From a virus (Duplodnaviria > Caudoviricetes), in the IMG/VR virus record IMGVR_UViG_3300035663_000005, positions 1 to 64,000 of that record: DNA of 64,000 nt, one strand, 5' to 3'. Below are positions 9,192-61,648 of the stretch, piece after piece. How positions within the stretch are numbered: the stretch's first letter is position 1; each line of letters opens with the position of its first letter. Below the pieces are notes generated by a model. That model searched no databases and was not told the DNA's origin. It saw only the letters and a program-made list of their open reading frames with translations. The position numbers and the translations under genes were made by a program.

Positions 9192-9725
9192 TTAGCGAGT
9201 TTCGTTGATGATATTACGAAGGGTTGCAACTTCTTCTTCAGAAAGTTGAGTCAAAAATTCACGAAGACCCAATTCAATCTGTGATGGTTGAGTTTCTTCC
9301 TTCTTCATACCAGCGGTTTTAATACCGGCAGCGGCTTTAGCGGGAGTAGCCAACTTGTTTGCTTCTGCGCTTGATGAACCGCCCTTTGGAGCAGTCTTGC
9401 TCTTTACTTCGGCGGGGGTAGCCAATGCTGCCTTTTGTGTTGGCATTTTAACATCGGCTTCATTTACCAACTCATCAAAACGAACCACCATTTCTGGAGT
9501 TAGCGAGCAACCACACTTTGCAGCACCCTCTTTCAGATGCTTGCGTAGAATATTACGCTTGGTTTCAGCAACCATAACGCTTTCTGTAAGCGTCTTTAGT
9601 TCGGTTGCGGCCGCCTTGGCTGCTTCCTTTAGCGACTCGGGAAGTTCAACTTTTGTGGTTGTCTTACCAACGAGAACATTTGTGATGCTATTGTAAAAAT
9701 CTTTGCTGATTGGTGAGTTGTGCAT
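9192..9725 (-). CDS. Hypothetical late protein
   Basis: 177-aa Ala/Lys/Glu-rich ORF; RBS; ACTAAATA at 9766-9773. Confidence 0.65.
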   Translation of the reverse strand: MHNSPISKDFYNSITNVLVGKTTTKVELPESLKEAAKAAATELKTLTESVMVAETKRNILRKHLKEGAAKCGCSLTPEMVVRFDELVNEADVKMPTQKAALATPAEVKSKTAPKGGSSSAEANKLATPAKAAAGIKTAGMKKEETQPSQIELGLREFLTQLSEEEVATLRNIINETR

Positions 9726-9781
9726 TGCTGCTCCTTGTAAATTTTATACTCTTGCCGCTAGGTAGTATTTAGTTAAATTTA

Positions 9782-25589: not shown

Positions 25590-25590
25590 C

Positions 25591-26376
25591 TTATTTCCTC
25601 ATGTTGAAAAGTTTTTCGTAGGTCAATTTCACACCTGCTTCAAGACCATAAATATTTATTTCTGGTAGATTACTTTCCCCGCAGTAAAACTCCAAGTTTG
25701 TTGGATTTTGAACAATGATAGGAACAGTATGATGTCCCATAAAATTTATGAGTCTGGCTATGTTCTTCAGAGTGTGTTTTTGTTCATAGGAGCAGTTAAC
25801 TTCTTTGCTTGGATTTAAGTCGTTGATGTAGAATTCCACCAACGATATCAAATCTTTCATGTAGAAAAAATCCATGATTCTATTGGTGTGTATCTGTATT
25901 GATTCGTGATTCAAGTAACGACTTATACTTGCTCGTATGAAACGAGTTTCAAGTTCATTTTCATCAAACACTCCAAATATTCTTATGTTGTAAAACTGCT
26001 CGGTGTCTTGTATAGACTTTGCTATTTCTGTTTTGCTTAGGCTGTATTGGGTTTGATGAAAGAATTCCGCACCAGACCCAAAGTGTATTAGTCTTCCAAA
26101 CCTACCTCTGTTTGCAAGCATATTACGATACATTTTCAGGTTTTGATCTCGGACATGATGATTATCTGATTTAAGCCTACTACCACCAGTTGCAGCCGCG
26201 TGAATAACCACATCAAAAATTTTACCTGAAAACCAGTTGTTTAGCGCATCAGTATCAGAAAGATCAAAATCTGTTCTAGAAATAGTGGTGACATTATACC
26301 ACGAACAAAGTTCACGATTTAGGCTCTTAGCAATATAACCATTTCCTCCGGTTATCAAAATACTTGGTTTTTTCAT
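25591..26376 (-). CDS. NAD-dependent epimerase/reductase
   Basis: ITGGNGYIA, GSGAE, YSLSK. Confidence 0.85.
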   Translation of the reverse strand: MKKPSILITGGNGYIAKSLNRELCSWYNVTTISRTDFDLSDTDALNNWFSGKIFDVVIHAAATGGSRLKSDNHHVRDQNLKMYRNMLANRGRFGRLIHFGSGAEFFHQTQYSLSKTEIAKSIQDTEQFYNIRIFGVFDENELETRFIRASISRYLNHESIQIHTNRIMDFFYMKDLISLVEFYINDLNPSKEVNCSYEQKHTLKNIARLINFMGHHTVPIIVQNPTNLEFYCGESNLPEINIYGLEAGVKLTYEKLFNMRK

Positions 26377-26849
26377 TTTCGGAGATTTAAATAAGTTGGT
26401 TGAGGATTCATTAAAATTTCAGCAAATTGTTGTACCATATCTTCTACAGTTTCAGGATGCAAAACTCGCAAATTTTCTAGAGTTCTCATTATTCTTTTGT
26501 CATCTTCAGCCCAATGAGAAAATCCCAAGTATCCGTAATCTTTGCCCCTGCCACCACCAATAATATTTACAGGAATATTTTCATGGCTTAGATAATTTCG
26601 TATCATCTCAAAAGGTCTGTAGATTGCAAACGGGCTAATGGAGTATACTAACGGAATCTTTCCATCCATAGCCAGCCCTATAGCCATACCCATCATAGCC
26701 ATTTCGGACGATCCAACATTATAAAACCTGTCCTTGTAATCATCTCGGATTTTGTCCCACAACCCGTAACCCAAATCTCCTGTTATCAGGTAAATTTTTG
26801 AGTTTGCTGCCATCGCACCATGAAGAAGTTCAGCAAATTGCTTTCTCAT
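26373..26849 (-). CDS. Transketolase-like pyrimidine-binding subunit
   Basis: TGDLG, NVG.SE..MMG.A.GLA, RPFE.IR, G.SH. Confidence 0.85.
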   Translation of the reverse strand: MRKQFAELLHGAMAANSKIYLITGDLGYGLWDKIRDDYKDRFYNVGSSEMAMMGMAIGLAMDGKIPLVYSISPFAIYRPFEMIRNYLSHENIPVNIIGGGRGKDYGYLGFSHWAEDDKRIMRTLENLRVLHPETVEDMVQQFAEILMNPQPTYLNLRK

Positions 26850-27466
26850 TTTAACATCTCCAATGCTTGCTTGTAATCGGATTCTTTCATAACATGATAG
26901 TGTGCATTCAGTCCCTTCAGAAAGGGAAACTGTTCAACTGTGGTATAGTGTATCTTAACTTCTGGAAGGAATGCTTTCAACCTCTCTGTTAGGTATTGCT
27001 GATCCACCTCCATGTAAGCAGCATAACCATTCACATTAACATGAACCTCAATATTTTTAATGTTCTGCTCACGAATTGTTTTCAAAGCCTCCCACACGCT
27101 ACCCTCGGCACACTCTCCATCACTCACAAGAACCCAAACCTTTCTCTTTGGATTGGCTACGGCTCTTCCTAATGCAATTGTGATGCCCAAGCCAAGACTT
27201 CCCGTTGAGCAGTAGATTTGATTAGCCTCGTCACGATGTGGATGTCCACCGTGCTTCAAAAACATCTCTTCGGCATTTATACCACGGTGCTTCTGTAGGC
27301 AAGCATATAAAGCAACGGCAGCATGTCCCGAAGACAAGATGAAAATGTCATCCTTGCCCATGTTGCCATACATTTGATCTATAATATCAACAGATGAGAA
27401 GTAACTACCTAAATGACCTAGTTTATGCTTAAATGCTATATCCAATATGATTTTCTTCAGATTCAT
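26846..27466 (-). CDS. Transketolase-like ThDP-binding subunit
   Basis: GHLGS, LS.GH, STGSLG.G, SDGE..EGS.WEA. Confidence 0.85.
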   Translation of the reverse strand: MNLKKIILDIAFKHKLGHLGSYFSSVDIIDQMYGNMGKDDIFILSSGHAAVALYACLQKHRGINAEEMFLKHGGHPHRDEANQIYCSTGSLGLGITIALGRAVANPKRKVWVLVSDGECAEGSVWEALKTIREQNIKNIEVHVNVNGYAAYMEVDQQYLTERLKAFLPEVKIHYTTVEQFPFLKGLNAHYHVMKESDYKQALEMLK

Positions 27467-27470
27467 ATTA

Positions 27471-28421
27471 TTACCAAATAAAATTATTACTGTAGTATTT
27501 GACTATTCTAGGAAGTTCTTCATCAAACTTTTTGACAGGATTCCATCCTAGTTTTCTAAGTTTAGAATCATCTAGAGCGTATCGGACATCTTGTCCAGGT
27601 CTGCTATAAGAAAAGTCTATGTAATCCGAATATTGGTCTTCTCTAATACCCAAACCCTGTAAAATCTTCGCAACAGTTTCCATATTTGATTGTTCAAATC
27701 CGCCGCAAATATTGTATATTTCATTCTTGGTTTCTGATTCAATTATGGTGATGATGGCTCTAGCAGTATCTTCAGCATGTAACCAATTTCGTATTGGAGT
27801 TCCATTGTTGTGTAGAGGAATCTTTCTTCCCAAATGCAAATACTTACAAACCTTAGGTATAAGTTTTTCAACATACTGACCTATACCATAATTATTCGTA
27901 GGTCTAACTATTACATACGGAATCTTGTAAGTTCTTGCCCAAGCCAACACCAACATGTCGGCGGCCGCTTTAGTGGCTGAGTATGGATTTGATGGCTTAA
28001 GTAAATCTTGTTCAGTATGTGCACCATCTGCAATATCTCCGTAAACTTCATCTGTGCTGAAGTGTAAAAAGGTCGGAGTTTTTCCATTCTCTTGCCGATA
28101 GTTCTTAATCAACTCAAGTATGTTGTGAACTCCATTGATGTTTGAACTTACAAAATCATCACTATTGCTTATGGAATTCCCAACATGAGTTTCTGCGGCG
28201 ATGTTTATAATGTAGTCGCAGTCATAAAGAAACTTAAGATCATTAATGTCAGATTGAACGAACGAAAAATTTGGATATTCCAAAAATTCTGTTAAAAGAT
28301 CATCGTTAGCAGCGTAAGTGATTTTATCAACTCCTTTAACCCACCATCCCTTCTCTAGGCATAGTCTAGTCACATAAGAACCTATAAATCCTAAGCATCC
28401 TGTTACATAAACAACTTTCAT
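27471..28421 (-). CDS. NDP-glucose 4,6-dehydratase (RmlB-like)
   Basis: TG..GFIGS, DKITYA, AAETHV, STDEVYG, PYSATKA, RPGQD.RY. Confidence 0.9.
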   Translation of the reverse strand: MKVVYVTGCLGFIGSYVTRLCLEKGWWVKGVDKITYAANDDLLTEFLEYPNFSFVQSDINDLKFLYDCDYIINIAAETHVGNSISNSDDFVSSNINGVHNILELIKNYRQENGKTPTFLHFSTDEVYGDIADGAHTEQDLLKPSNPYSATKAAADMLVLAWARTYKIPYVIVRPTNNYGIGQYVEKLIPKVCKYLHLGRKIPLHNNGTPIRNWLHAEDTARAIITIIESETKNEIYNICGGFEQSNMETVAKILQGLGIREDQYSDYIDFSYSRPGQDVRYALDDSKLRKLGWNPVKKFDEELPRIVKYYSNNFIW

Positions 28422-28452
28422 ATTTGCCTCAATTCTACTTCTGTCATATGAT

Positions 28453-29790
28453 TTATTGATTAATAATAGACAAACGAACTCTTTTTTTAGTCATAAAGTC
28501 ATTCAAAGTTGATTCAATGTAATCTAATTGTTCATCTGTTATGACTGGACTGGTTCCCAAGAAGAAGGTATCGGTTGTAACCTTTCTTGCATTAGGATAA
28601 TCTTTAACTACTCGCTCGGTATCCATCAGCCCTTCATACGCAGGCTGCAACATGATGTTGCCTGCAAAATACGGTCTAGTTTGAATCTTATTCTCTTCAA
28701 AGTAGTCAACAATATCCTTACGCTTGAATGGACATCCATCTTTCAAGGTTACTGCAAATGCAAACCAAGCAGGATCAGAATTTTCGGTTGCTTTTGGAAT
28801 GATGAAATGCTCTTCATACTTGGAGAACATTTTGCACAGTCTAGCATGGTTATGCTTTCGTATTTCAATAATCTTGGGTAATCTCTTAACCTGAACAAGA
28901 CCCATAGCAGCCTGTTGATCTGTAGGCTTCAGATTATAGCCTATCTCATCGTACACATATTTGTGGTCAAAAATCTCATTCGGTAGAGCAGGAAGCCAAT
29001 TTGAAAATCTCTTCTTGCAACTGCCGTTCTTCAGGAAATTCGCCTGCTTTCCTACGCAATAGCAACCTCTTCCCCACTCACGGAAACTTCTAGCAACAAT
29101 CTCTTGTTCCTTGGTGCGAGTTGCAACAAACCCACCTTCTCCCATAGTAATATGATGAGCAGGATAGAATGAACATGAAGCAAACTCACCAAAACTACCT
29201 AGAGATTTTCCTCCATAGGTTGATCCTAAAGCATCACAACAGTCTTCAAGTAAAACAAGATTGTATCGGTTAACAATCTCCATCAATCTATCCATGTTTG
29301 GAGGATTACCTAGAACATGAGCAAAAGTTATGATACGACACCCCTCCTTTGCTCGTTGTTCAACCTGATTCAAATTCAGATTCAAAGTATCCAAATCTAT
29401 ATCAACAAACACTGGCTCAAACCCGACTTGAAAAATTGGATTTATTGTAGTTGGGAATCCCGCGATGGGGGTTATTACTTTGGTTCCTTTTGGAAAATTG
29501 TTCAAACGCTTAGAGGTCATACACGACATCATTATCAAGTTTGAACTGCTTCCGCTGTTAGTTAAGATACCGTACTCTTTGCCCATCAGATTAGGGAACT
29601 GATGCTCAAAGCGAATACCGTTTGATCCTAAAACCAACCAGCCCTCAAGCAGAGTCTTTACCGATTCGGTGTATTCCTCCGTACCAAAATAAGGCCCTGC
29701 GTACTGAACCCAATCAACACCAGCCTTCCATTTCTTAGAAACTTGCTTTTCCTTAATGAAGTCTTCAACTGCTTTGAGTATGTGTTCCAT
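28453..29790 (-). CDS. rfbH: CDP-4-keto-6-deoxyglucose 3-dehydrase (RfbH/DdhC)
   Basis: NSGSSSNL, EDCCDALG, SFYPAHHITMGEGG (His in place of Lys), WGR.C.C..G....C, DHKY. Confidence 0.85.
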   Translation of the reverse strand: MEHILKAVEDFIKEKQVSKKWKAGVDWVQYAGPYFGTEEYTESVKTLLEGWLVLGSNGIRFEHQFPNLMGKEYGILTNSGSSSNLIMMSCMTSKRLNNFPKGTKVITPIAGFPTTINPIFQVGFEPVFVDIDLDTLNLNLNQVEQRAKEGCRIITFAHVLGNPPNMDRLMEIVNRYNLVLLEDCCDALGSTYGGKSLGSFGEFASCSFYPAHHITMGEGGFVATRTKEQEIVARSFREWGRGCYCVGKQANFLKNGSCKKRFSNWLPALPNEIFDHKYVYDEIGYNLKPTDQQAAMGLVQVKRLPKIIEIRKHNHARLCKMFSKYEEHFIIPKATENSDPAWFAFAVTLKDGCPFKRKDIVDYFEENKIQTRPYFAGNIMLQPAYEGLMDTERVVKDYPNARKVTTDTFFLGTSPVITDEQLDYIESTLNDFMTKKRVRLSIINQ

Positions 29791-29796
29791 AATGTA

Positions 29797-31359
29797 TTAG
29801 TGTATTCCAAATCCCCAATCATTCAAGTTGGGAATACTATATTTTGCCACACTTTCTTTGATAAACTTATACTTATAGTTAGTAGTTAAATCTTGATCTT
29901 TGTAAATATCAGAACGAACTTTTAATGGAAAAGAGAATTCTACAGGTTGCCAAGAAAAATTGTTAACAGATTTGTCGTACTCAGTATAATCAATAACATC
30001 TGCATTGAATCTATTCTTGTTAACATAGTCTTCAATTTTCCAGTAGTATTGCTTGACGGCAACAGCCTTTTTATCAATCCATTGCAAATGAGAAATGAAG
30101 ATGTTTGGAACCTGAATTGATAACTGATTCTTTGGTACAGGAATATGCTCAGAATGCATTTGACGATTCTTAAAAACTGCTCTATTTGAATAGGAGCCTA
30201 TACGATCAACCCAGTGTACTTGCCACTTTCCGTCTGTTCGTATTTGATTTTTGCCTACATATTGAATCCATTGGGTATAGAACAAAGTATCCTTATGGGC
30301 TTCAAGTATTCCTTTCAACTGCTCTTTTTTAATGTTGCCATCTATGTACTCATCTGAATCCAAGCAAATTATCTTGCTAGAGTATTTAAATGCTTCATCA
30401 AATAACATCTGTCTGGCATCAGACTCTATTGCCAACTTATCGTTGTCCCTGTCTATTTTTAAAATACTAACAATGTTATACTTGTTTGCATTTTCTTTTA
30501 GATACTGGTAAGTTCCGTCTGTACAACTATCCAATAAGAACACAAAAGCATCAGCATACTCCTTCCACACAGGAAGCATTTCTTTCAACAAGAACAGTTC
30601 ATCTCTAGTTCTAGTAATTTGCACTATCCAGCCATCATTAACCTTTGGTTCAATACTTTTAAAGCCATTTGCTTTTCGTGTTTCATAAATTGCTTGGTCA
30701 ACACTCGCACCCACTCGCATATTATGCTGCATCAATTCGTCTTGGTTTTCTGCCCACTTATGAACTATGGGGCGACGGTTAATGTGTCGTAGAACACCCA
30801 TCTGTTCAAACACTTCAGTCTGCTCGTTGTCACACCATTCAGACTTGTAATCTGGATGGTAGATGTATCCAAAGTGCTCGTACAGTTTTCTCCCAATAAC
30901 AGGTAGAGTGATTAGAGTCTTAAATCCGTCTGCTCCCTTTTGCTCTAGACGAGGATCATTGTTATAATTCAAAGATCCATTGGTATCGGGAAATTCTTTA
31001 GCCATATCTTCGGCTATGATATCGTCCCAACCATTTTCAACAGGCTCCATATCATCTGCTGTAGAAATCAAAATATCCCAAGGAGTGCTTGGAATATTTC
31101 GGTTTATTGCAGATATCTTCCCATTCTTCTCCCCGTAGAAATAAAGAACCGAGCACATATCAGTCTTAGGTAAGTTGTCCAAAAAGTGCTTGATTCTAGG
31201 ATTGTTTAGGAGTAGATCATCAGAATCCATGCTGATTACATAAGTGATCTTATGCTTACCTGATGCCTTTTCCATATAGGCACGAAGGTTGTTCATAAAC
31301 TTACCTGGTCTCTGACGAGTTGGGTACTTTAAAAGAAGATGCTTCTTATCGCTTTGCAT
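29797..31359 (-). CDS. Two-domain glycosyltransferase
   Basis: KYPTRQRP...ADDM...WCDNE domain followed by GT2-like D.CTDGT...LDSDE domain. Confidence 0.8.
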   Translation of the reverse strand: MQSDKKHLLLKYPTRQRPGKFMNNLRAYMEKASGKHKITYVISMDSDDLLLNNPRIKHFLDNLPKTDMCSVLYFYGEKNGKISAINRNIPSTPWDILISTADDMEPVENGWDDIIAEDMAKEFPDTNGSLNYNNDPRLEQKGADGFKTLITLPVIGRKLYEHFGYIYHPDYKSEWCDNEQTEVFEQMGVLRHINRRPIVHKWAENQDELMQHNMRVGASVDQAIYETRKANGFKSIEPKVNDGWIVQITRTRDELFLLKEMLPVWKEYADAFVFLLDSCTDGTYQYLKENANKYNIVSILKIDRDNDKLAIESDARQMLFDEAFKYSSKIICLDSDEYIDGNIKKEQLKGILEAHKDTLFYTQWIQYVGKNQIRTDGKWQVHWVDRIGSYSNRAVFKNRQMHSEHIPVPKNQLSIQVPNIFISHLQWIDKKAVAVKQYYWKIEDYVNKNRFNADVIDYTEYDKSVNNFSWQPVEFSFPLKVRSDIYKDQDLTTNYKYKFIKESVAKYSIPNLNDWGFGIH

Positions 31360-32633: not shown

Positions 32634-32913
32634 GTAGTTCCGCCTCTTCTTTAAACTCTTCTATAGTACAACGATTTACAAGCACAGGAGTTCCTTCTCC
32701 AAGATACCCACCAAGTGTATTCACTTCCAACCACTCGTAAGCATCAACCACATCCATACCCTGTGCCACTAAAATGTCTAGACACTTTTCGTAATCATAG
32801 ACAGCCACAGGCATGGTCTGCCCAAACTTACGCAGGTTGCCTAAGAACGCGGCTTCAAACTCAGGATAGACGATTATCTCATCATTCCGCTTCAACGGTT
32901 TCCGAGGTTTCAT
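32614..32913 (-). CDS. Conserved phage hypothetical protein
   Basis: AFLG...VAVYD..KC...A.EW...NT.GGY.GE.TP. Confidence 0.65.
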
Positions 32914-33946
32914 TGGTGTTTGCTCCTTCCTGGTCAGAGCCATACTTGAACTCTTTGGCTGCTGCTGTTTCCAAAGCCTTCATCACTTCTTCGGTGAAAT
33001 ACTTGGTTGGATTCTTCACAATCTGGCTTTCGAAGGCGGTTGTGCCGTTTGGCAATTCAATCTTGGTGGAAACCTTCTTGAACACTCCCTGCTTCAGAGC
33101 AAGGTCAACCAAACCGTAGTATCGGTCAAGTCCCTTATCAAAGGTTAGAAGAACATCAATCATCTTATTCTCTCGGGTAAGACGACCCTTGTAGAGTTTG
33201 CAATGAACAATATTGCCAACCACTTCGTCATCCACCTTGTGCTTCTTCTTGGAAAGATACACGATGGTTGAAGCCGCATACTTAAGTCCTGTGCCACCAC
33301 CCATCTCCTTGGTTGGCACATACGCACCCACTACCTCGTAGGTGTGATTGGTGACAATCATAGGAATGTTATGCAGACCCAACTTCAAGGTAAGCACACG
33401 GAACGCACCCTTGATAACCTGAGCGCGAGTCATGTCTCGCACTTCCTTGCCTTCCAAGGTATCGTTGGTTTCCTTAGAAGTGCTCAACATTCCGAGCGAG
33501 TCCAACACCACAAAGAACGGCTTACGCTTCTTCTCGTCCAACTTACCGTAGTTGTCGATGATTTGCAGCAACTGATGACGGAACTGCTCCACGGTTGCCA
33601 CAGGGAATACGGCAACGCGATTCGGGTCAAGTCCGCGTGACTTAATCATATCGCTAGTTACAGCCTGTTCGGAGTCAAAGTAAAGAATCGCTCCTTCAGG
33701 ATTATCGTTCAAGAACTGTGCGGCGATACCCAAAGCAAAATAAGTCTTGCCTGTGGCAGACTCGCCTGCGATACCTAGAATCTTGTTGTTGGCAATACCG
33801 CCAGTCAGAGAGCCTGACAGAAGAGCGTTGAAAGAATACGAGCCAGTATCCACAAAGCCCGTGATATCTCCTTCAACTCCATCTTCGGCTAGCGAAGCAA
33901 ACTCATTACCTGATGCACGAATCATACTCTTTAAAAAGTCACTCAT
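32882..33946 (-). CDS. uvsX: RecA-like recombinase
   Basis: [37 protein letters not shown]. Confidence 0.95.
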
Positions 33947-44500: not shown

Positions 44501-44566
44501 TTTAAGACGGCTAGTTTTTGGTTAATCTAGCCGTTTAAGACGGCTAGTTTTTGGTTAATCTAGCCG
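44501..44566. repeat. Exact 33-bp tandem duplication within an inverted repeat
   Basis: tttaagacggctagtttttggttaatctagccg at 44501-44533 and 44534-44566. Confidence 0.95.
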
Positions 44567-44583
44567 TTTGAGAAGGACAGAAT

Positions 44584-54933: not shown

Positions 54934-55224
54934 TTATCGTTTTACTGATTGCCATGCTGGTGCTAGAGGCAAAGAGGTTTTAGCAACTGCTTGTTCGCTG
55001 CCTGCTCCTGCCGCTTGTAACCATTTTGCAACCATCCCCCTTCTACGATTTGCGTATAGTGCGTTTTCTACTTCCCAAGGAAGTTTTGTTCTTTCAAAAC
55101 CATCATATTTTTCCACATCAAAATCTGTTGGAACCATGTCTGCTTGAAATCCTAAACCATAAGTGAAAACTCCGGTTCCATTCGCCGGCCCTTCTTCACG
55201 AATGTATTGTTTAAACGATTTCAT
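54934..55224 (-). CDS. Hypothetical, probable internal head protein
   Basis: Starts MKSFKQYIREE. Confidence 0.65.
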   Translation of the reverse strand: MKSFKQYIREEGPANGTGVFTYGLGFQADMVPTDFDVEKYDGFERTKLPWEVENALYANRRRGMVAKWLQAAGAGSEQAVAKTSLPLAPAWQSVKR

Positions 55225-56886: not shown

Positions 56887-57036
56887 TTAAATTTTAACTT
56901 TTATCGCTCTCAAAGTCACATCGTGACCTGGTGGATAAAGTTTCGGCAATCCTTGACGAGAAACGCCCTTTGGACGCTTGCGGGTTTTGTAGCCACCTTT
57001 TCGGAAAGCCTTTGTGCCATCTCTATTCTTTGCCAT
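56887..57036 (-). CDS. Small basic protein (49 aa, not in ORF track)
   Basis: MAKNRDGTKAFRKGGYKTRKRPKGVSRQGLPKLYPPGHDVTLRAIKVKI. Confidence 0.5.
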   Translation of the reverse strand: MAKNRDGTKAFRKGGYKTRKRPKGVSRQGLPKLYPPGHDVTLRAIKVKI

Positions 57037-57199
57037 CTGATTTGCTCTTTGATTTAGTTTCTTTTTTAATTTCTTCTTGTTCGTTGTGTAAATTTTCCGC
57101 TGCTTGTTCTTCTGGTGTTGCAGAAGGAAATTTTATAGGTTCGATAGAACCCATTTTCAATTTTTCTCTGAAGTTTGGCCCAAGAAAAAAATTTTTCAT
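57023..57199 (-). CDS. Small protein (58 aa, not in ORF track)
   Basis: MKNFFLGPNFREKLK...; TGATG coupling to upstream gene. Confidence 0.55.
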   Translation of the reverse strand: MKNFFLGPNFREKLKMGSIEPIKFPSATPEEQAAENLHNEQEEIKKETKSKSKSDGKE

Positions 57200-58092
57200 C
57201 AAGCGGTTCCTTTCATCACAAGATTATGTGCTTGTGTGAATCCTTTAACTATCTCGTGCCAATCACGAAGATTGATGAATGCTCTATTTACCGTGTTTTC
57301 ATCTCCAGGATCTCCGCCAGAGCAAACATTTGCTTTCTTGCAAAGTGCATCAGGAATGAAACTTAAATCTCCGTATATTGACCATCTTTGTCTAAAACCA
57401 CCGAATGTTTTTTTAATTCCACCTTCAGAATACATTACTACTATAGTTCCAATTCCAGGAATAATTTTTTCGATTGCAGGAATACCAGGACCAGTTGGAT
57501 CTTCTATAGTTGTTGCTTTCCATCCTTGTGGAGGACGATTATAAAAATCTGGAATTTTTGGTGGGGTTTTTTTGCCGCCAAAACCAAAAATCTTCTCTGT
57601 TAGAGAACGCTTTACTTCTTCGTGCAACTTCTTTTGATAGTAGTAAGCACTTCCGCTTAGTTGTGCAGATTCAATTTTACCTAAAGCGTAACGCCTTGAT
57701 AGTGCAGGAATAATTTCTGCCGCAAGTTTGGTGATTAGATCTTTCTCTTTTTGTGTGCATTCCGTCTTTAGAATGCTTAGAACCTTGTCTGGATTATTAG
57801 AGTTCTGATTGATTTTTGCTGCCAATCGGGGGAGAACGATTGAAGAGAAAGAAGTTAAAAGTAGTTGTTCGTTTGGAGTAGCCGACTTCTTGAACCATCC
57901 GAAAAATTCTGAAACAGGAATTACAATTTGAGGATTGCGATCCGAAAGTGTTTGCAACATTTCGTCAATAGTTACTTCACGATCTTCTTTCGACAAAACT
58001 GAAACAGGGGTTGGGGCGACGGGTGTAGTTTCAGCCTTATTTGGTTGAAACTTGGCGACTTCTTCCTGCAATTTCTTTTGATAATGATACAT
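57199..58092 (-). CDS. Hypothetical late protein with duplicated motif
   Basis: AGGAG RBS; TATAAATA at 58123-58130; YxYQKKLxEEV occurs twice. Confidence 0.7.
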   Translation of the reverse strand: MYHYQKKLQEEVAKFQPNKAETTPVAPTPVSVLSKEDREVTIDEMLQTLSDRNPQIVIPVSEFFGWFKKSATPNEQLLLTSFSSIVLPRLAAKINQNSNNPDKVLSILKTECTQKEKDLITKLAAEIIPALSRRYALGKIESAQLSGSAYYYQKKLHEEVKRSLTEKIFGFGGKKTPPKIPDFYNRPPQGWKATTIEDPTGPGIPAIEKIIPGIGTIVVMYSEGGIKKTFGGFRQRWSIYGDLSFIPDALCKKANVCSGGDPGDENTVNRAFINLRDWHEIVKGFTQAHNLVMKGTA

Positions 58093-58187
58093 TTTTTCTC
58101 CCTGAAAAAAGTTTTTCTAAAGTATTTATATTTAATTGCCCTGCGGGGGGGTATAAAGTTTTCAAAACAACTTAATAAATAAATAAG

Positions 58188-58309
58188 ATCAATAAAAAGG
58201 ACTCAAAATGCACTCAAACAGAATTGAACACTTTCTGTACGCAAACACAATTCCAACCGAACTTAACTATCAAACCGATATTTTAAGATCTTTAGTGTAT
58301 ACTGATGGA
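58188..58309 (+). repeat. 122-bp direct repeat, copy 1
   Basis: Identical by eye to 59883-60004. Confidence 0.95.
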
Positions 58310-59890
58310 GCAGAGTATCCTTATTCTTTGAATCCTGTTGATATGCCAGTGTATGTGGGTCGATTACGAGATTCTGTTACAAAAATTTTAAATAATGCAA
58401 ATGGTGTAAGTCAAGAGTGTGTTGGTGCATTTACACAAGCCGTTTGTGATTACGAAAAAAAATTGGCTGATATTAATGATAAAATAAGACAAGAAACAGA
58501 TAATTTTCTAAAAAACCTAATAAACAACTACATGGATTGGTTAGAATCTTTAGGATCTTATTTACCGATATCTGAGATTTATGATAAGTTTTTAACTGCT
58601 TTAGGTCAAGAAGCAGAATCACTAGGACTTGCTGCTTCAGGTTTTTTTGGAACTTCTGAGGTTATTGACGCATATAATACTATACAATCTCAAATGCAAT
58701 CATTGCCTGAGAATATACAAAATGCTTGGAGAGGGTATAGGCATAATATTGCTCAGTCAACCAGGGTAACTGGTGAAATAAATCAATTAAATACATTAAT
58801 AGAATCACTTAGAAGAACCCCTCCTTCACTTATCCCCTCAAATGCTAGTAGAGAAAGATTACTTAATCAATATTTAAGTCAACTTAACGATAAAAAAAGA
58901 GAACTAATAGCAATTCAAAATCTTATATCATCGTATTCGAGTGCTTTATTAGACTTTGTTAGAAATAATCCACAAGCAGCAAGTATTCAGGGATTTAGAC
59001 GGGCTATAGAACAAATAATTATAGTAAAGATAAAGCCTACGCCTCCTCCGGGTGCTAGACCAGGATTTGTTAATGTTGAAAACATTAGAGATGCATTTAA
59101 ATGGATTGCTGGAACTTTAAAAAGATTAAAAAATGTGCTTAAAGCAGCATTAGTAGCACTGGGAGCAGCAGCACTTGGTGCTTTAATAGGAGTGTCTGTA
59201 CTGTTAACTGCAGCATTAGAAAGACTTTTGTTTGAAATATCATCGGCTTGCAATACTTGGGAAAATAAAGTTCGGGAATTAGAAAATGTTCATAGATTTA
59301 GAGCATCAAGCGAATTTTATGAAAAAATAAATGAAATTTTAACTGATGGTTGTTGCGATAAGTCCTGTCCTCCAATTTGTAGTGGTGGTTCAGGAAGTGG
59401 TTCAGGAAGTAATACAGGTTCTGGAGGAGGTTCTGGTAGCGGTGTAGGATCATCTTGCACTGAAGGAGTCGGATTAACTCTTCTGATGGGCAGCAAATAT
59501 ATTCCTACCTATTATGATTCCATCAATATAAATTACAAGAATATGTCTCAGGTGGCAGAACCTGGAAAGTGTGGATATTTGGATGATTGCCCTCCAAGAG
59601 ATGTTTTTAATTGCACTATATGTGGAAGTTTAACAGTTGATTCTAACAATATTCCTGTTTCATATCCTGATAATAACTGGAAAACATGTAGAGATACAAT
59701 AAGGACTATTCCTTCAAACACTGTAAACGAACCACCACTTATGCCAAGACACACTTGTGCTTGCGGATGGCCAGATGAACAAAATCTGACTAGTCCTTGT
59801 GATATTGCTGGTCAACTTTATGATGCTGCAACCGATTTAGTTAAAGATATACTGAGCACTATTGGCGGCGGAATTACAACAAATCAATAA
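58208..59890 (+). CDS. Hypothetical: helical region, hydrophobic segment, GS linker, Cys-rich C-terminus
   Basis: 560-aa ORF with AAGGA RBS. Confidence 0.8.
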   Translation: MHSNRIEHFLYANTIPTELNYQTDILRSLVYTDGAEYPYSLNPVDMPVYVGRLRDSVTKILNNANGVSQECVGAFTQAVCDYEKKLADINDKIRQETDNFLKNLINNYMDWLESLGSYLPISEIYDKFLTALGQEAESLGLAASGFFGTSEVIDAYNTIQSQMQSLPENIQNAWRGYRHNIAQSTRVTGEINQLNTLIESLRRTPPSLIPSNASRERLLNQYLSQLNDKKRELIAIQNLISSYSSALLDFVRNNPQAASIQGFRRAIEQIIIVKIKPTPPPGARPGFVNVENIRDAFKWIAGTLKRLKNVLKAALVALGAAALGALIGVSVLLTAALERLLFEISSACNTWENKVRELENVHRFRASSEFYEKINEILTDGCCDKSCPPICSGGSGSGSGSNTGSGGGSGSGVGSSCTEGVGLTLLMGSKYIPTYYDSININYKNMSQVAEPGKCGYLDDCPPRDVFNCTICGSLTVDSNNIPVSYPDNNWKTCRDTIRTIPSNTVNEPPLMPRHTCACGWPDEQNLTSPCDIAGQLYDAATDLVKDILSTIGGGITTNQ

Positions 59891-60004
59891 AAAGGACTCA
59901 AAATGCACTCAAACAGAATTGAACACTTTCTGTACGCAAACACAATTCCAACCGAACTTAACTATCAAACCGATATTTTAAGATCTTTAGTGTATACTGA
60001 TGGA
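59883..60004 (+). repeat. 122-bp direct repeat, copy 2
   Basis: Identical by eye to 58188-58309 (offset 1695). Confidence 0.95.
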
Positions 60005-60010
60005 ATATGA
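59903..60010 (+). pseudogene. 35-aa stub duplicating the N-terminus of 58208..59890
   Basis: MHSNRIEHFLYANTIPTELNYQTDILRSLVYTDGI then stop. Confidence 0.7.
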
Positions 60011-60040
60011 TATTGCCTGAATATTTACAACAAATAACAG

Positions 60041-60610
60041 ATGAAATCGTTTCGCACATTTTTAAACGAGCAAAGCGACCCAAAATGTTTGGAGCAATCC
60101 AAATTTGTTTGGCGTGGTGCTGTTAAAGAGAGTGCTATCTGTAATTTTAAAAATGGGATTGTGTGGCAGGGAGCCATTCAATCTGTTCCGCTTTTCAATA
60201 TTAAAGGTGGAATAATGTGGGAAGGAGCCTTGCAAGCCAAGGCTATCGGTAACTTTAAAGGCGGCATCCTTTGGGCAGGCATGATTCAACAAACTCCGCT
60301 ATGCAACATGCGCGAAGGAGTTGTATGGCAAGGAGCGGTTCAAGCAAAGGCTGTTGCCAACTACGGCATACAGATTGGTCAAGCAAACGAGTGCGGTTCT
60401 GAAAGTCTGTTCTTGTGGAAAGATATGGTTAGAAGTGTTGCGTTCTTTAATTCTAACACTAAACTTAGCAACCACATGAAAATGGCTTTAGTGTATTGGT
60501 TCTTGATGCGAACAACCAAGTCTACAAATAAAAAAGCAGCCTCGGCGGTTAAGCCAAAGGCTGCTGTTTCAAAGCCAAAGTCTAAATCGACTCAAGCATC
60601 CAAAGCGTAA
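60041..60610 (+). CDS. 18-aa repeat protein, probable internal head protein
   Basis: Starts MKSFRTFLNE; five W.GA.Q.....N...G repeats; basic tail. Confidence 0.75.
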   Translation: MKSFRTFLNEQSDPKCLEQSKFVWRGAVKESAICNFKNGIVWQGAIQSVPLFNIKGGIMWEGALQAKAIGNFKGGILWAGMIQQTPLCNMREGVVWQGAVQAKAVANYGIQIGQANECGSESLFLWKDMVRSVAFFNSNTKLSNHMKMALVYWFLMRTTKSTNKKAASAVKPKAAVSKPKSKSTQASKA

Positions 60611-61425
60611 TAATTCGTCGTTTTGCTTGGCGAGTTGTTGATGAAGTTTTCAATACCTTGCATGATTTCATAAAACTTCTGCTTGTCTGAAACCATCTCC
60701 TGCTCCGTCAGGTCTTCGGTAAGAATGCGAGGAGTGGTGAAATCTGGAAGTGCGGTATCTACACCTATATTCCAATTCCTGCTTCCCCATTGCAAACGAG
60801 GAGGCTGACTCTTCATGTCTTCAGGATGAGAAACTCGCTTAACCCTGTTCCATTGGTTTTCATCCCAACTGTTGTGAGAAGTCAACTCTCCGAATGTGCG
60901 AGTAGAAACATCGGGTGAGTGCGCCCACACGCGAGCGTAAACCTGCTCCCAAATTACACGAGCCAAGTCGGGAGTAATCAGAAGAAACTGACAACCGTTC
61001 ACCGAGATGCCCTTGCCTCTGCTGTAATCTTCTTCAAACATCTTGAACAAGCGGTTGTTCATGTTCGCTTCATGGGTAGCCATGTTCCACGAGTCGCTTG
61101 GGTCTGCATCAATCTTGTGAAGCACACTTAAAGGAGCCAACGGCTTATGGTCGGAAAGCATGGGTGTGCCGAACACACCCTCTAATTCCCGAATTTCCAT
61201 CGGATACCAACAGTTTGTCCCGTTGCTGCCAAGCCCACGCGGAGCAGCACCAAGCCACTCACGAGCAAACAGGGCAACGCAATGTGGGCGGTTGGACTTC
61301 AATCTCCAAAAGTGAAGTTCCACAATGTTGTGCTGCTGCAAACCGTTGAACAGAATGGTGTGCTTGTTCACTACAGGAACGCCGTGAATCTTGGATAGTG
61401 TCATGGTGTCGTCACGCATTTTCAT
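60592..61425 (-). CDS. Hypothetical protein
   Basis: 277-aa ORF; AAGGA RBS. Confidence 0.65.
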   Translation of the reverse strand: MKMRDDTMTLSKIHGVPVVNKHTILFNGLQQHNIVELHFWRLKSNRPHCVALFAREWLGAAPRGLGSNGTNCWYPMEIRELEGVFGTPMLSDHKPLAPLSVLHKIDADPSDSWNMATHEANMNNRLFKMFEEDYSRGKGISVNGCQFLLITPDLARVIWEQVYARVWAHSPDVSTRTFGELTSHNSWDENQWNRVKRVSHPEDMKSQPPRLQWGSRNWNIGVDTALPDFTTPRILTEDLTEQEMVSDKQKFYEIMQGIENFINNSPSKTTNYYALDA

Positions 61426-61648
61426 TTCCTTTTAACGCTGGATATCGGTCTTGGATTCGTCCCATTGTTTCCGATAAATCTTTTCCTTCCCGGAACGCTT
61501 GCATCATGTCCATCAGAAAAATGGTGTTGTGTTCGTTGCCTGCAATCAACACTTCATCAAACAAGAGATAGAACATCTCTCTAGTTTGTTCTGCGGTGAC
61601 TGCGTATTCCTTGCCTTCATGCCGGTAAATCCAAAGTGGAGAGGTCAT
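61412..61648 (-). CDS. Hypothetical protein
   Basis: Tightly packed ORF with RBS. Confidence 0.6.
   Translation of the reverse strand: MTSPLWIYRHEGKEYAVTAEQTREMFYLLFDEVLIAGNEHNTIFLMDMMQAFREGKDLSETMGRIQDRYPALKGNENA

Follow-up and report, generated by a model that had tools for sequence, protein, structure and literature searches.

A 122-nt exact direct repeat around an acquired gene of a T4-type lake-water phage, probably a scar of partial self-duplication at a variable site

In the phages RB49 and phi1, recombination between flanking PeSL repeats deletes, inserts and circularises ORFans, and the PeSLs are intergenic cassettes of a promoter and a stem-loop terminator that are found at many sites, according to the sections of Arbiol et al. 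2010 (PMC2839356) that deal with these elements. Here, we describe a locus with some of the same features in the IMG/VR virus record IMGVR_UViG_3300035663_000005, of which positions 1 to 64,000 form the window. The locus consists of a gene for a protein of 560 amino acids (aa), called X in the following, which is bracketed by two exact direct copies of a 122-nt sequence (L1 and L2) that is made up of the ribosome-binding site (RBS) and the first 34 codons of X itself. Similar to the ORFans between PeSLs, which are the closest system described in those sections, X is a strain-specific ORFan in a variable region of a T4-type phage, it is flanked by direct repeats and replaced by another gene in sibling phages, and recombination between its repeats would yield a small circle. 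It differs from the PeSL system, as characterised there, in that the repeat is coding, being the RBS and 34 codons of the gene itself, and in that there are two copies of it. No promoter-like sites were identified in either copy of the repeat (10 such sites in 57900-60300, compared to a mean of 9.2 in shuffled sequences), and no terminator-like sites were identified in 57900-60300. Since there are only two copies, with neither a promoter-like nor a terminator-like site, the repeat of X is not a PeSL-type cassette.

The T4 internal-protein locus encodes diverse proteins that have only a capsid-targeting sequence in common, as stated in the part of PMC3012670 that concerns it. This model stands behind the suggestion, made in the first-pass annotation of the window, of a constant N-terminal leader with exchangeable bodies; unlike the internal proteins as portrayed there, the leader of X is always placed on the same family. 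Work on this locus by Repoila and colleagues from 1994 is reportedly what is cited for the capsid-targeting-sequence model. Tandem duplications and insertion-duplications in T4 arise by illegitimate or single-crossover recombination and are easily lost by homologous recombination. The X locus resembles them in being a direct duplication of a kind that such recombination would produce and that is prone to loss, but it amounts to 1.07 units, and the siblings contain no resident L at the site. In the “genomic accordions” of poxviruses, a gene family grows and shrinks in tandem. The X family likewise expands and contracts in tandem, but the paralogues in the relatives are old and diverged, and the sequencing depth at the locus studied here corresponds to one copy.

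We suggest, with a probability of roughly 0.6, that the repeat is the scar of a recent partial self-duplication, left at the 3' junction that an acquired gene forms within a hyperplastic site.

The repeat, the variable site and the 3' junction

The two copies of the repeat (Table 1) are identical at every position (0 mismatches) with a spacing of 1695 nt. The first copy starts 20 nt upstream of the ATG of X and includes the motif AAAGGA, the stop codon of X (TAA, 59888-59890) is located inside the second copy, and the second copy is at the same time the start of an open reading frame (ORF) of 35 aa, the stub. This arrangement of exact repeats, gene and stub was already described in the first-pass annotation, and it was recovered here with the same graph in all four lake-water runs that were examined (see below). 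The pair is the longest exact direct repeat of the 86,727-nt contig and far exceeds the length expected by chance. The next longest exact direct repeats, of 53 and 50 nt, are both placed within a collagen-like tail-fibre gene, and no further copies of the 122-nt sequence are present elsewhere in the contig. The contig, whose completeness is estimated at 39% of the genome, encodes a gp43-like DNA polymerase, a clamp loader, a DnaB-like helicase, a primase and a UvsX-like recombinase (32885-33946, minus strand), and its source is a T4-type freshwater phage from lake water. The second copy of the repeat has a GC content of 0.33, which is near that of the body of X (0.354 in 58310-59882) and unlike that of the flanks (0.42-0.46). 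As it matches the first copy at 122 of 122 positions and has the GC content of X, the second copy derives from X and is recent. The stub is a pseudogene fragment, presumably without function: beyond codon 34, where the family continues with AEYPY, it contains an isoleucine and a stop codon and no family sequence.

To place the locus among related phages, we compared it with five sibling contigs. The flanking genes led to an 84-kb contig (L008), in which the two flanking genes show 94% and 98% protein identity to those in the window, and another four metagenome contigs were retrieved through an exact DNA word at the beginning of the downstream gene. All five siblings have the 3' end of an 86-aa ORF (MRSDYGF...WKMHNK) ahead of the downstream gene; in L012, which begins just 55 nt before the matched pattern, this end alone is visible. 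The stop codon of this ORF is located 5 nt 5' of the ATG of the downstream gene. The flanks of the sibling contigs are 92-96% identical to the window, and the 86-aa gene is unrelated to X; it matched no Pfam family and one marginal PHROG, for which no function is annotated. In the BLAST alignments, homology to the window stops at 58136 in L008, L013 and L014 and at 58132 in L011, and it resumes at 60019 in L008, L011, L013 and L014 and at 60029 in L012, such that 1882 nt of the window stand in place of about 295 nt in the siblings. To judge from these alignments, the site at 58137-60018 is a variable, or hyperplastic, one. The repeat was found at this site in none of the five sibling contigs (0/5), although records of the lineage of the window itself may be hidden from the scans. 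As L is missing from all five and the 86-aa gene is present in each, there is no indication that X entered by homologous integration at an L that was already there. No member of the X family was found in the 84 kb of the sibling contig G001. Between the contig of the window (G000) and G001, blocks of 72-96% identity are interrupted by about 20 sites of insertion, deletion or replacement. None of the other sites has a long exact flanking repeat, and among exact repeats of at least 20 nt, only the 122-nt pair brackets such a site.

The 3' junction of X retains a trace of the gene that was replaced. The 11-mer TTACAACAAAT occurs at 59874 and 60025 and nowhere else in the 86.7-kb contig. In the relatives, the last part of the 86-aa gene reads ACAACAA[A/G]TAACAGATG, which identifies the downstream 11-mer as ancestral sequence. 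The upstream 11-mer overlaps the last codons of X (ITTNQ), while the homology of the family at the C-terminus seems to end at GGGI. No source was found for the 22 nt of filler between the second copy of the repeat and the downstream 11-mer: the similarity to the 3' end and interior of X was not significant (148 of 1000 shuffled sequences and 8 of 53 other chunks of the genome scored equally high), nor was that of its left part to the end of the 86-aa gene (p 0.14). A 25-nt repeat pair was considered as the 3' remnant of a second paralogue and was rejected, as only the 11-mer is robust and represents ancestral sequence from the 86-aa gene. The position of the second copy of the repeat and the 22 nt within the 11-mer bracket points to a joining by illegitimate recombination, possibly mediated by microhomology or template switching.

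According to this proposal, an AT-rich and horizontally acquired X would have replaced the 86-aa gene between two conserved genes and would have become joined to the tail of that gene. A templated copy of the RBS and first 34 codons of X would have been placed at the 3' junction of X by illegitimate recombination, either in one complex template-switch insertion or by a full tandem duplication of X in which the second copy then collapsed. Both routes, template switch and duplication-collapse, are what we infer from the junction. The L1/L2 pair is most likely not part of a dedicated system for cassette exchange, and no new system of this kind is revealed by it. The locus would instead capture, in a natural setting, the remodelling of variable regions by T4-type phages, in which an acquired gene replaces the resident and the junction keeps a copy of the newcomer's start.

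Table 1. Coordinates of the features at and around the X locus. Positions refer to the window unless a contig is named.
Feature	Position	Strand	Remarks
297-aa gene	57199..58092	-	Conserved, divergently oriented, left border; 94% identical in sibling
Lineage-specific block	58137..60018	+	Replaces about 295 nt (86-aa gene and upstream region) of siblings; limits of BLAST homology
Repeat copy 1 (L1)	58188..58309	+	20 nt with RBS AAAGGA and codons 1-34 of X
X, 560-aa ORF	58208..59890	+	Member of an unnamed phage ORFan family
11-mer copy 1, TTACAACAAAT	59874..59884	+	In last codons of X; abuts repeat copy 2 with 2-nt overlap
Repeat copy 2 (L2)	59883..60004	+	Last two codons and TAA of X, duplicated RBS, first 34 codons of stub
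35-aa stub ORF	59903..60010	+	34 residues of the family and one I before the TGA; matches positions 1-39 of the family profile at E 1.7e-17
Filler, 22 nt	60005..60026	+	Between L2 and second 11-mer; no source found
11-mer copy 2, then AACAG	60025..60040	+	Remnant of last codons and stop of ancestral 86-aa gene, 5 nt ahead of the ATG of the 189-aa gene
189-aa gene (MKSF leader)	60041..60610	+	Conserved; N-terminus MKSFRTFLNEQ; no Shine-Dalgarno-like sequence seen upstream; 98% identical in sibling
MKSF-leader gene	54934..55224	-	96 aa
MKSF-leader genes, L006	5219, 5629, 6399, 6866
MKSF-leader genes, L007	3919, 4329

Graph and depth of the locus in lake-water runs

Of the words sampled from 57600-60600, a fraction of at least 0.89 is present in each of twenty public lake-water runs. 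Four of these (X1, X7, X12 and X20), which come from four samples and studies and were filed from 2020 to 2025, were examined in the form of Logan contigs (k=31). The contigs stop exactly at the borders of the repeat in all four runs, each of which contains an upstream contig (U) that extends to 58217, a 122-nt contig (L) with 0 differences, the gene body (X) at 58280-59912, and a downstream contig (D) from 59975. The junctions U-L, L-X, X-L and L-D were all found in every run, and the sole graph neighbour of X on either side is L. Since all four junctions exist and X has only L as a neighbour, the order U-L-(X-L)n-D is forced. The depths, which are mean word depths of the contigs and thus coarse, were 18.5 for L, 10.1 for U, 8.8 for X and 11.4 for D in run X1; 13.1, 8.6, 5.4-5.8 and 7.7 in run X7; 17.7, 9.1, 8.3-12.6 and 10.4 in run X12; and 39.6, 16.7, 19 and 22.1 in run X20. 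The depth of the repeat is roughly double that of the flanks and of the gene and close to the sum of U and X in all four runs, and the depth of X relative to the flanks is about 0.82 in X1, 0.69 in X7, and about 1.0 in both X12 and X20. As the depth of L is close to U plus X and that of X is about 0.7-1.0 of the flanks, n is about 1 and the gene is not amplified; its depth was above that of the flanks in none of the four runs.

An assembly artefact, named at first pass as an outcome that would overturn the finding, is contradicted by the recovery of the same structure in the contigs of all four runs with 0 differences in the repeat. A variant of this objection is that genomes with the order U-L-D coexist with a separate L-X circle or other replicon and that the two are joined only in the graph. 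This mixture would predict a depth of L equal to U plus X equally well, and contigs built with k=31 cannot link sequences across 122 nt. However, in the four runs, each of another sample and study, the depth of X tracks that of the flanks (0.69-1.0), and X is connected to L alone on both sides. In addition, four JGI contigs (86.7, 42.7, 6.7 and 2.7 kb) are recorded in the protein collection as encoding the complete 560-aa protein, and one of 3.6 kb as encoding the stub. We therefore regard a mixture as very improbable.

The first-pass annotation also suggested that the locus is an active cassette, in which UvsX-type recombination between the two copies of the repeat would excise X as a 1695-bp circle that is re-inserted or amplified. 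The perfect 122-nt repeats speak for this, and the suggestion that UvsX could suffice is sound in that a gene of this type is encoded by the contig, which makes recombination between the repeats physically plausible. Furthermore, the site is polymorphic within the lakes, where run X20 has a loose end at 60027 with the 86-aa allele, showing that both alleles are present in the same lake data. The sections of PMC2839356 mentioned above describe mini-circles of RB49 and phi1 that form between flanking repeats, and the depth of X is 0.69 and 0.82 of the flanks in two of the runs. Against an active cassette stand the lack of amplification in all four runs, the presence of just two copies of L in the contig, and thus of no second docking site, the absence of L from the site in the five siblings, and the finding that the leader was joined to no other genes in the protein searches. 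In addition, a search of IMG/VR for the empty-site pattern gave 0 matches with a working positive control, which is weak evidence as records near the window may be left out. Contigs built with k=31, which do not bridge 122 nt, neither show nor exclude an empty site (U-L-D) or a circle, and the lack of reported joints in the four runs is uninformative on both. Taken together, we consider an active cassette improbable. What stands of the cassette idea is that the site is variable and holds an unrelated 86-aa gene in the siblings, while the leader is not found on varied C-termini; similarly, the term accordion locus applies to the arrays of the family that expand and contract in relatives but not to this locus, where no amplification was seen in the four runs.

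Excision of X could nevertheless occur as a side effect of a self-duplication scar, since UvsX-type recombination on two perfect repeats could delete X as a 1695-bp circle, and such deletion should be expected at some rate from 122-nt repeats in a phage that encodes UvsX. The perfect repeats would then provide a natural experiment on the rate at which a population of wild phages loses one copy of a 122-nt repeat when the two are 1.7 kb apart. It is conceivable, although we think it improbable, that the circle, which would contain the complete gene with its RBS, may re-enter any genome with the conserved 5' end of a family member, with the start of the coding sequence as the docking site. If true, a re-entering circle of X would be the coding-sequence counterpart of the PeSL mini-circles and would explain how the family builds arrays and moves between sites.

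Another proposal concerns the function of the second copy and is compatible with its origin as a scar. The duplicated RBS and short ORF would have been kept by selection to deliver ribosomes to the 189-aa gene, which has no Shine-Dalgarno sequence of its own and would have been left without its coupling partner by the replacement of the 86-aa gene with X. Consistent with this, the distance from the 86-aa stop to the 189-aa ATG is 5 nt in the siblings with no GGAG-like site seen upstream, X terminates 150 nt and the stub 31 nt upstream of the 189-aa gene, the stub is in frame with the ancestral terminal codons YNK-stop, and the structure is unchanged in all four runs. However, the TGA of the stub is 31 nt short of the ATG and not at the ancestral stop, and the locus is a single example known as sequence. 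A selected leader ORF thus seems an unlikely explanation.

Some observations are less easily reconciled with a neutral self-duplication scar. The order of events is not recoverable and the 22-nt filler is without an explanation, and neither of the expected forms, an X without the stub or a full tandem duplicate, was found. The scans of the sequence collections hide records close to the window, which leaves variants of its own lineage unsurveyed. The perfect repeats were unchanged across runs filed from 2020 to 2025, which might mean that they are retained by selection. Finally, the depth of X is 13-30% under that of the flanks in X1 and X7, which could reflect a subpopulation with a deletion and hence ongoing activity; this deficit could also be within the range of AT-related coverage bias.

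The X family, its leader and the neighbouring genes

No Pfam families were identified in X, and the PHROGs gave only marginal matches of coiled-coil type (E 0.006-0.009). The AlphaFold2 model consists mostly of helices with a mean pLDDT of 56, and no useful match to X was obtained from the ESM Atlas (TM not above 0.31, best feature score 0.75). The cluster representative P0001 is 99% identical to X and represents the same gene. Beyond P0001, the alignment contains 12 full-length homologues of 507-586 aa that are 29-39% identical to X. There are 47 invariant columns across the 14 sequences of the family alignment, and the family profile matched X in its own genome at E 4e-206. The first 34 residues of X correspond to the conserved N-terminus of the family, with the consensus MQxNRIQHFLYTNNIPTGLNYETxMLRSLVYxEG, and the conservation continues beyond the border of the repeat with AEYPY...LPxYVGxxxDS. 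The N-terminus is followed by a variable, long helical middle, a hydrophobic stretch that we read as putatively membrane-spanning, the motif GCCDK, a Gly/Ser linker, a nearly invariant GVGLTLLMG.KYIPTYYD block and a Cys-rich C-terminus.

The idea of a constant N-terminal leader on varied bodies was not borne out, as the leader is the N-terminus of one family and the conservation crosses the border of the repeat. The check proposed at first pass, to look for the leader joined to different C-termini, gave no credible case in either a word-based or a phmmer search. In the word-based search, a 41-aa N-terminal query gave two matches among longer proteins, the same gene and one family member. In an exhaustive phmmer search with the first 65 residues against 1.84 billion representatives, 13 matches were obtained, six of which are family members (P0011, P0012, P0002, P0009, P0031 and P0035) and four of which are short N-terminal fragments (P0027, P0029, P0032 and P0034), with the stub itself among them. 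The other three (P0028, P0030 and P0033) are multi-repeat proteins of 497-2393 aa; considered as leader fusions, their sequences read as repeat or compositional matches and were judged spurious. One of them, the bacterial-looking repeat protein P0033 (497 aa), matches the N-terminal motif of the family twice (HIEHW.NSNYKIPTKL...SIVYTDGSDYASL) at E 2.5e-5, either by chance or because of a distant shared small domain. All of the more distant homologues (12/12) are full-length family members. At the DNA level, the exact leader gave 0 matches in IMG/VR, a weak result as records near the window may be left out.

Three of the short proteins, P0034 (68 aa), P0027 (94 aa) and P0032 (103 aa), whose contigs are 0.9-2.4 kb long, contain the N-terminus of the family followed by unrelated residues. 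P0034 is identical to P0031 over its first 36 residues and breaks two codons from the break of the stub in the window, and P0027 is identical to P0007 over its first 74 residues. A scan with P0031 found nothing.

Relatives of the locus are few. A scan of IMG/VR with the single protein X gave no relative, an alignment-based scan then gave two loci, and a blastn search (“distant”) with 57000-61500 gave no match among the GenBank records of phages. In the related contigs L006 and L007, members of the family are arranged in tandem, as a 584-aa copy and one copy cut by the end of the contig in L006, and as four copies in L007. The X family thus forms tandem arrays of two to four diverged paralogues in related phages, which expand and contract. 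Within these arrays, the DNA is conserved best at the 5' ends of adjacent paralogues, which are 70-74% identical over 108-122 nt. A second paralogue in the contig of the window is located outside the window at G000 86266-86727 (minus strand), where it is cut by the end of the contig, 26 kb from X and on the opposite strand; its C-terminus equals that of P0007.

These arrays raise the alternative that X was acquired as a pair with a diverged paralogue, and that the second gene has lost its interior and had its 5' end converted to that of X. Such a contraction is suggested by the tandem arrays in both of the related contigs found (two copies in L006 and four in L007), by the placement of the highest conservation at the 5' ends of the paralogues, and by the spacing at the junction of X and the second copy of the repeat (stop, 12 nt, ATG), which resembles that of the inter-paralogue junctions in L007. 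However, no paralogue-like sequence is present after codon 34 of the stub or ahead of the 11-mer, the neighbours in real arrays are 70-74% rather than 100% identical at their 5' ends, and an extra conversion event would be needed, with a tract that ends exactly where the homology ends. A contracted array is thus unlikely, although it is the least improbable of the alternatives considered here, and a self-duplication of the start of X is preferred. A small duplication at a gene junction was also observed within the family: in L007, the last 31 nt of the first paralogue of the array are repeated directly after its stop codon with 97% identity (9704-9734 and 9743-9773), and the second of these copies supplies the AGGAGGA ahead of the next paralogue.

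Beside X-family genes in three phages, there are eight small genes whose bodies are unlike but which have the N-terminus MKSF[KRT]xx[LI]xE in common (Table 1). The first 45 nt of three neighbouring genes of this type in L006 are 73-80% identical. The motif resembles what we take to be the T4 internal proteins' capsid-targeting sequence, and these genes, rather than X, may be candidates for a constant leader on variable bodies. Both the X family, with its large, Cys-rich and tandemly arranged proteins that we read as membrane-associated, and its neighbours with the MKSF leader may merit further study.

Several minor features were noted in the same sequences. The sequence TATAAATA, which is also conserved in the siblings, is present on the minus strand at window positions 58123-58130, 31 nt before the 297-aa gene, while TATAAAGT is present on the plus strand at 58152-58159, 49 nt before X. 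The former equals what we take to be the late-promoter consensus of T4, and the latter is one base off. The homologue of the 297-aa gene in L008 (4748-5641, minus strand) is split into ORFs of 125 and 153 aa. Among the sugar-nucleotide genes, G000 and G001 also differ by a swap of 5.2 kb for 1.4 kb at 25590-30777. A 36-nt exact tandem pair in the window, at 44501-44569, contains an inverted repeat. Finally, a 28-nt exact repeat ending in CAT is present at G000 68881 and 70031, with copies 1150 nt apart, which may be the common 5' ends of two genes on the minus strand.

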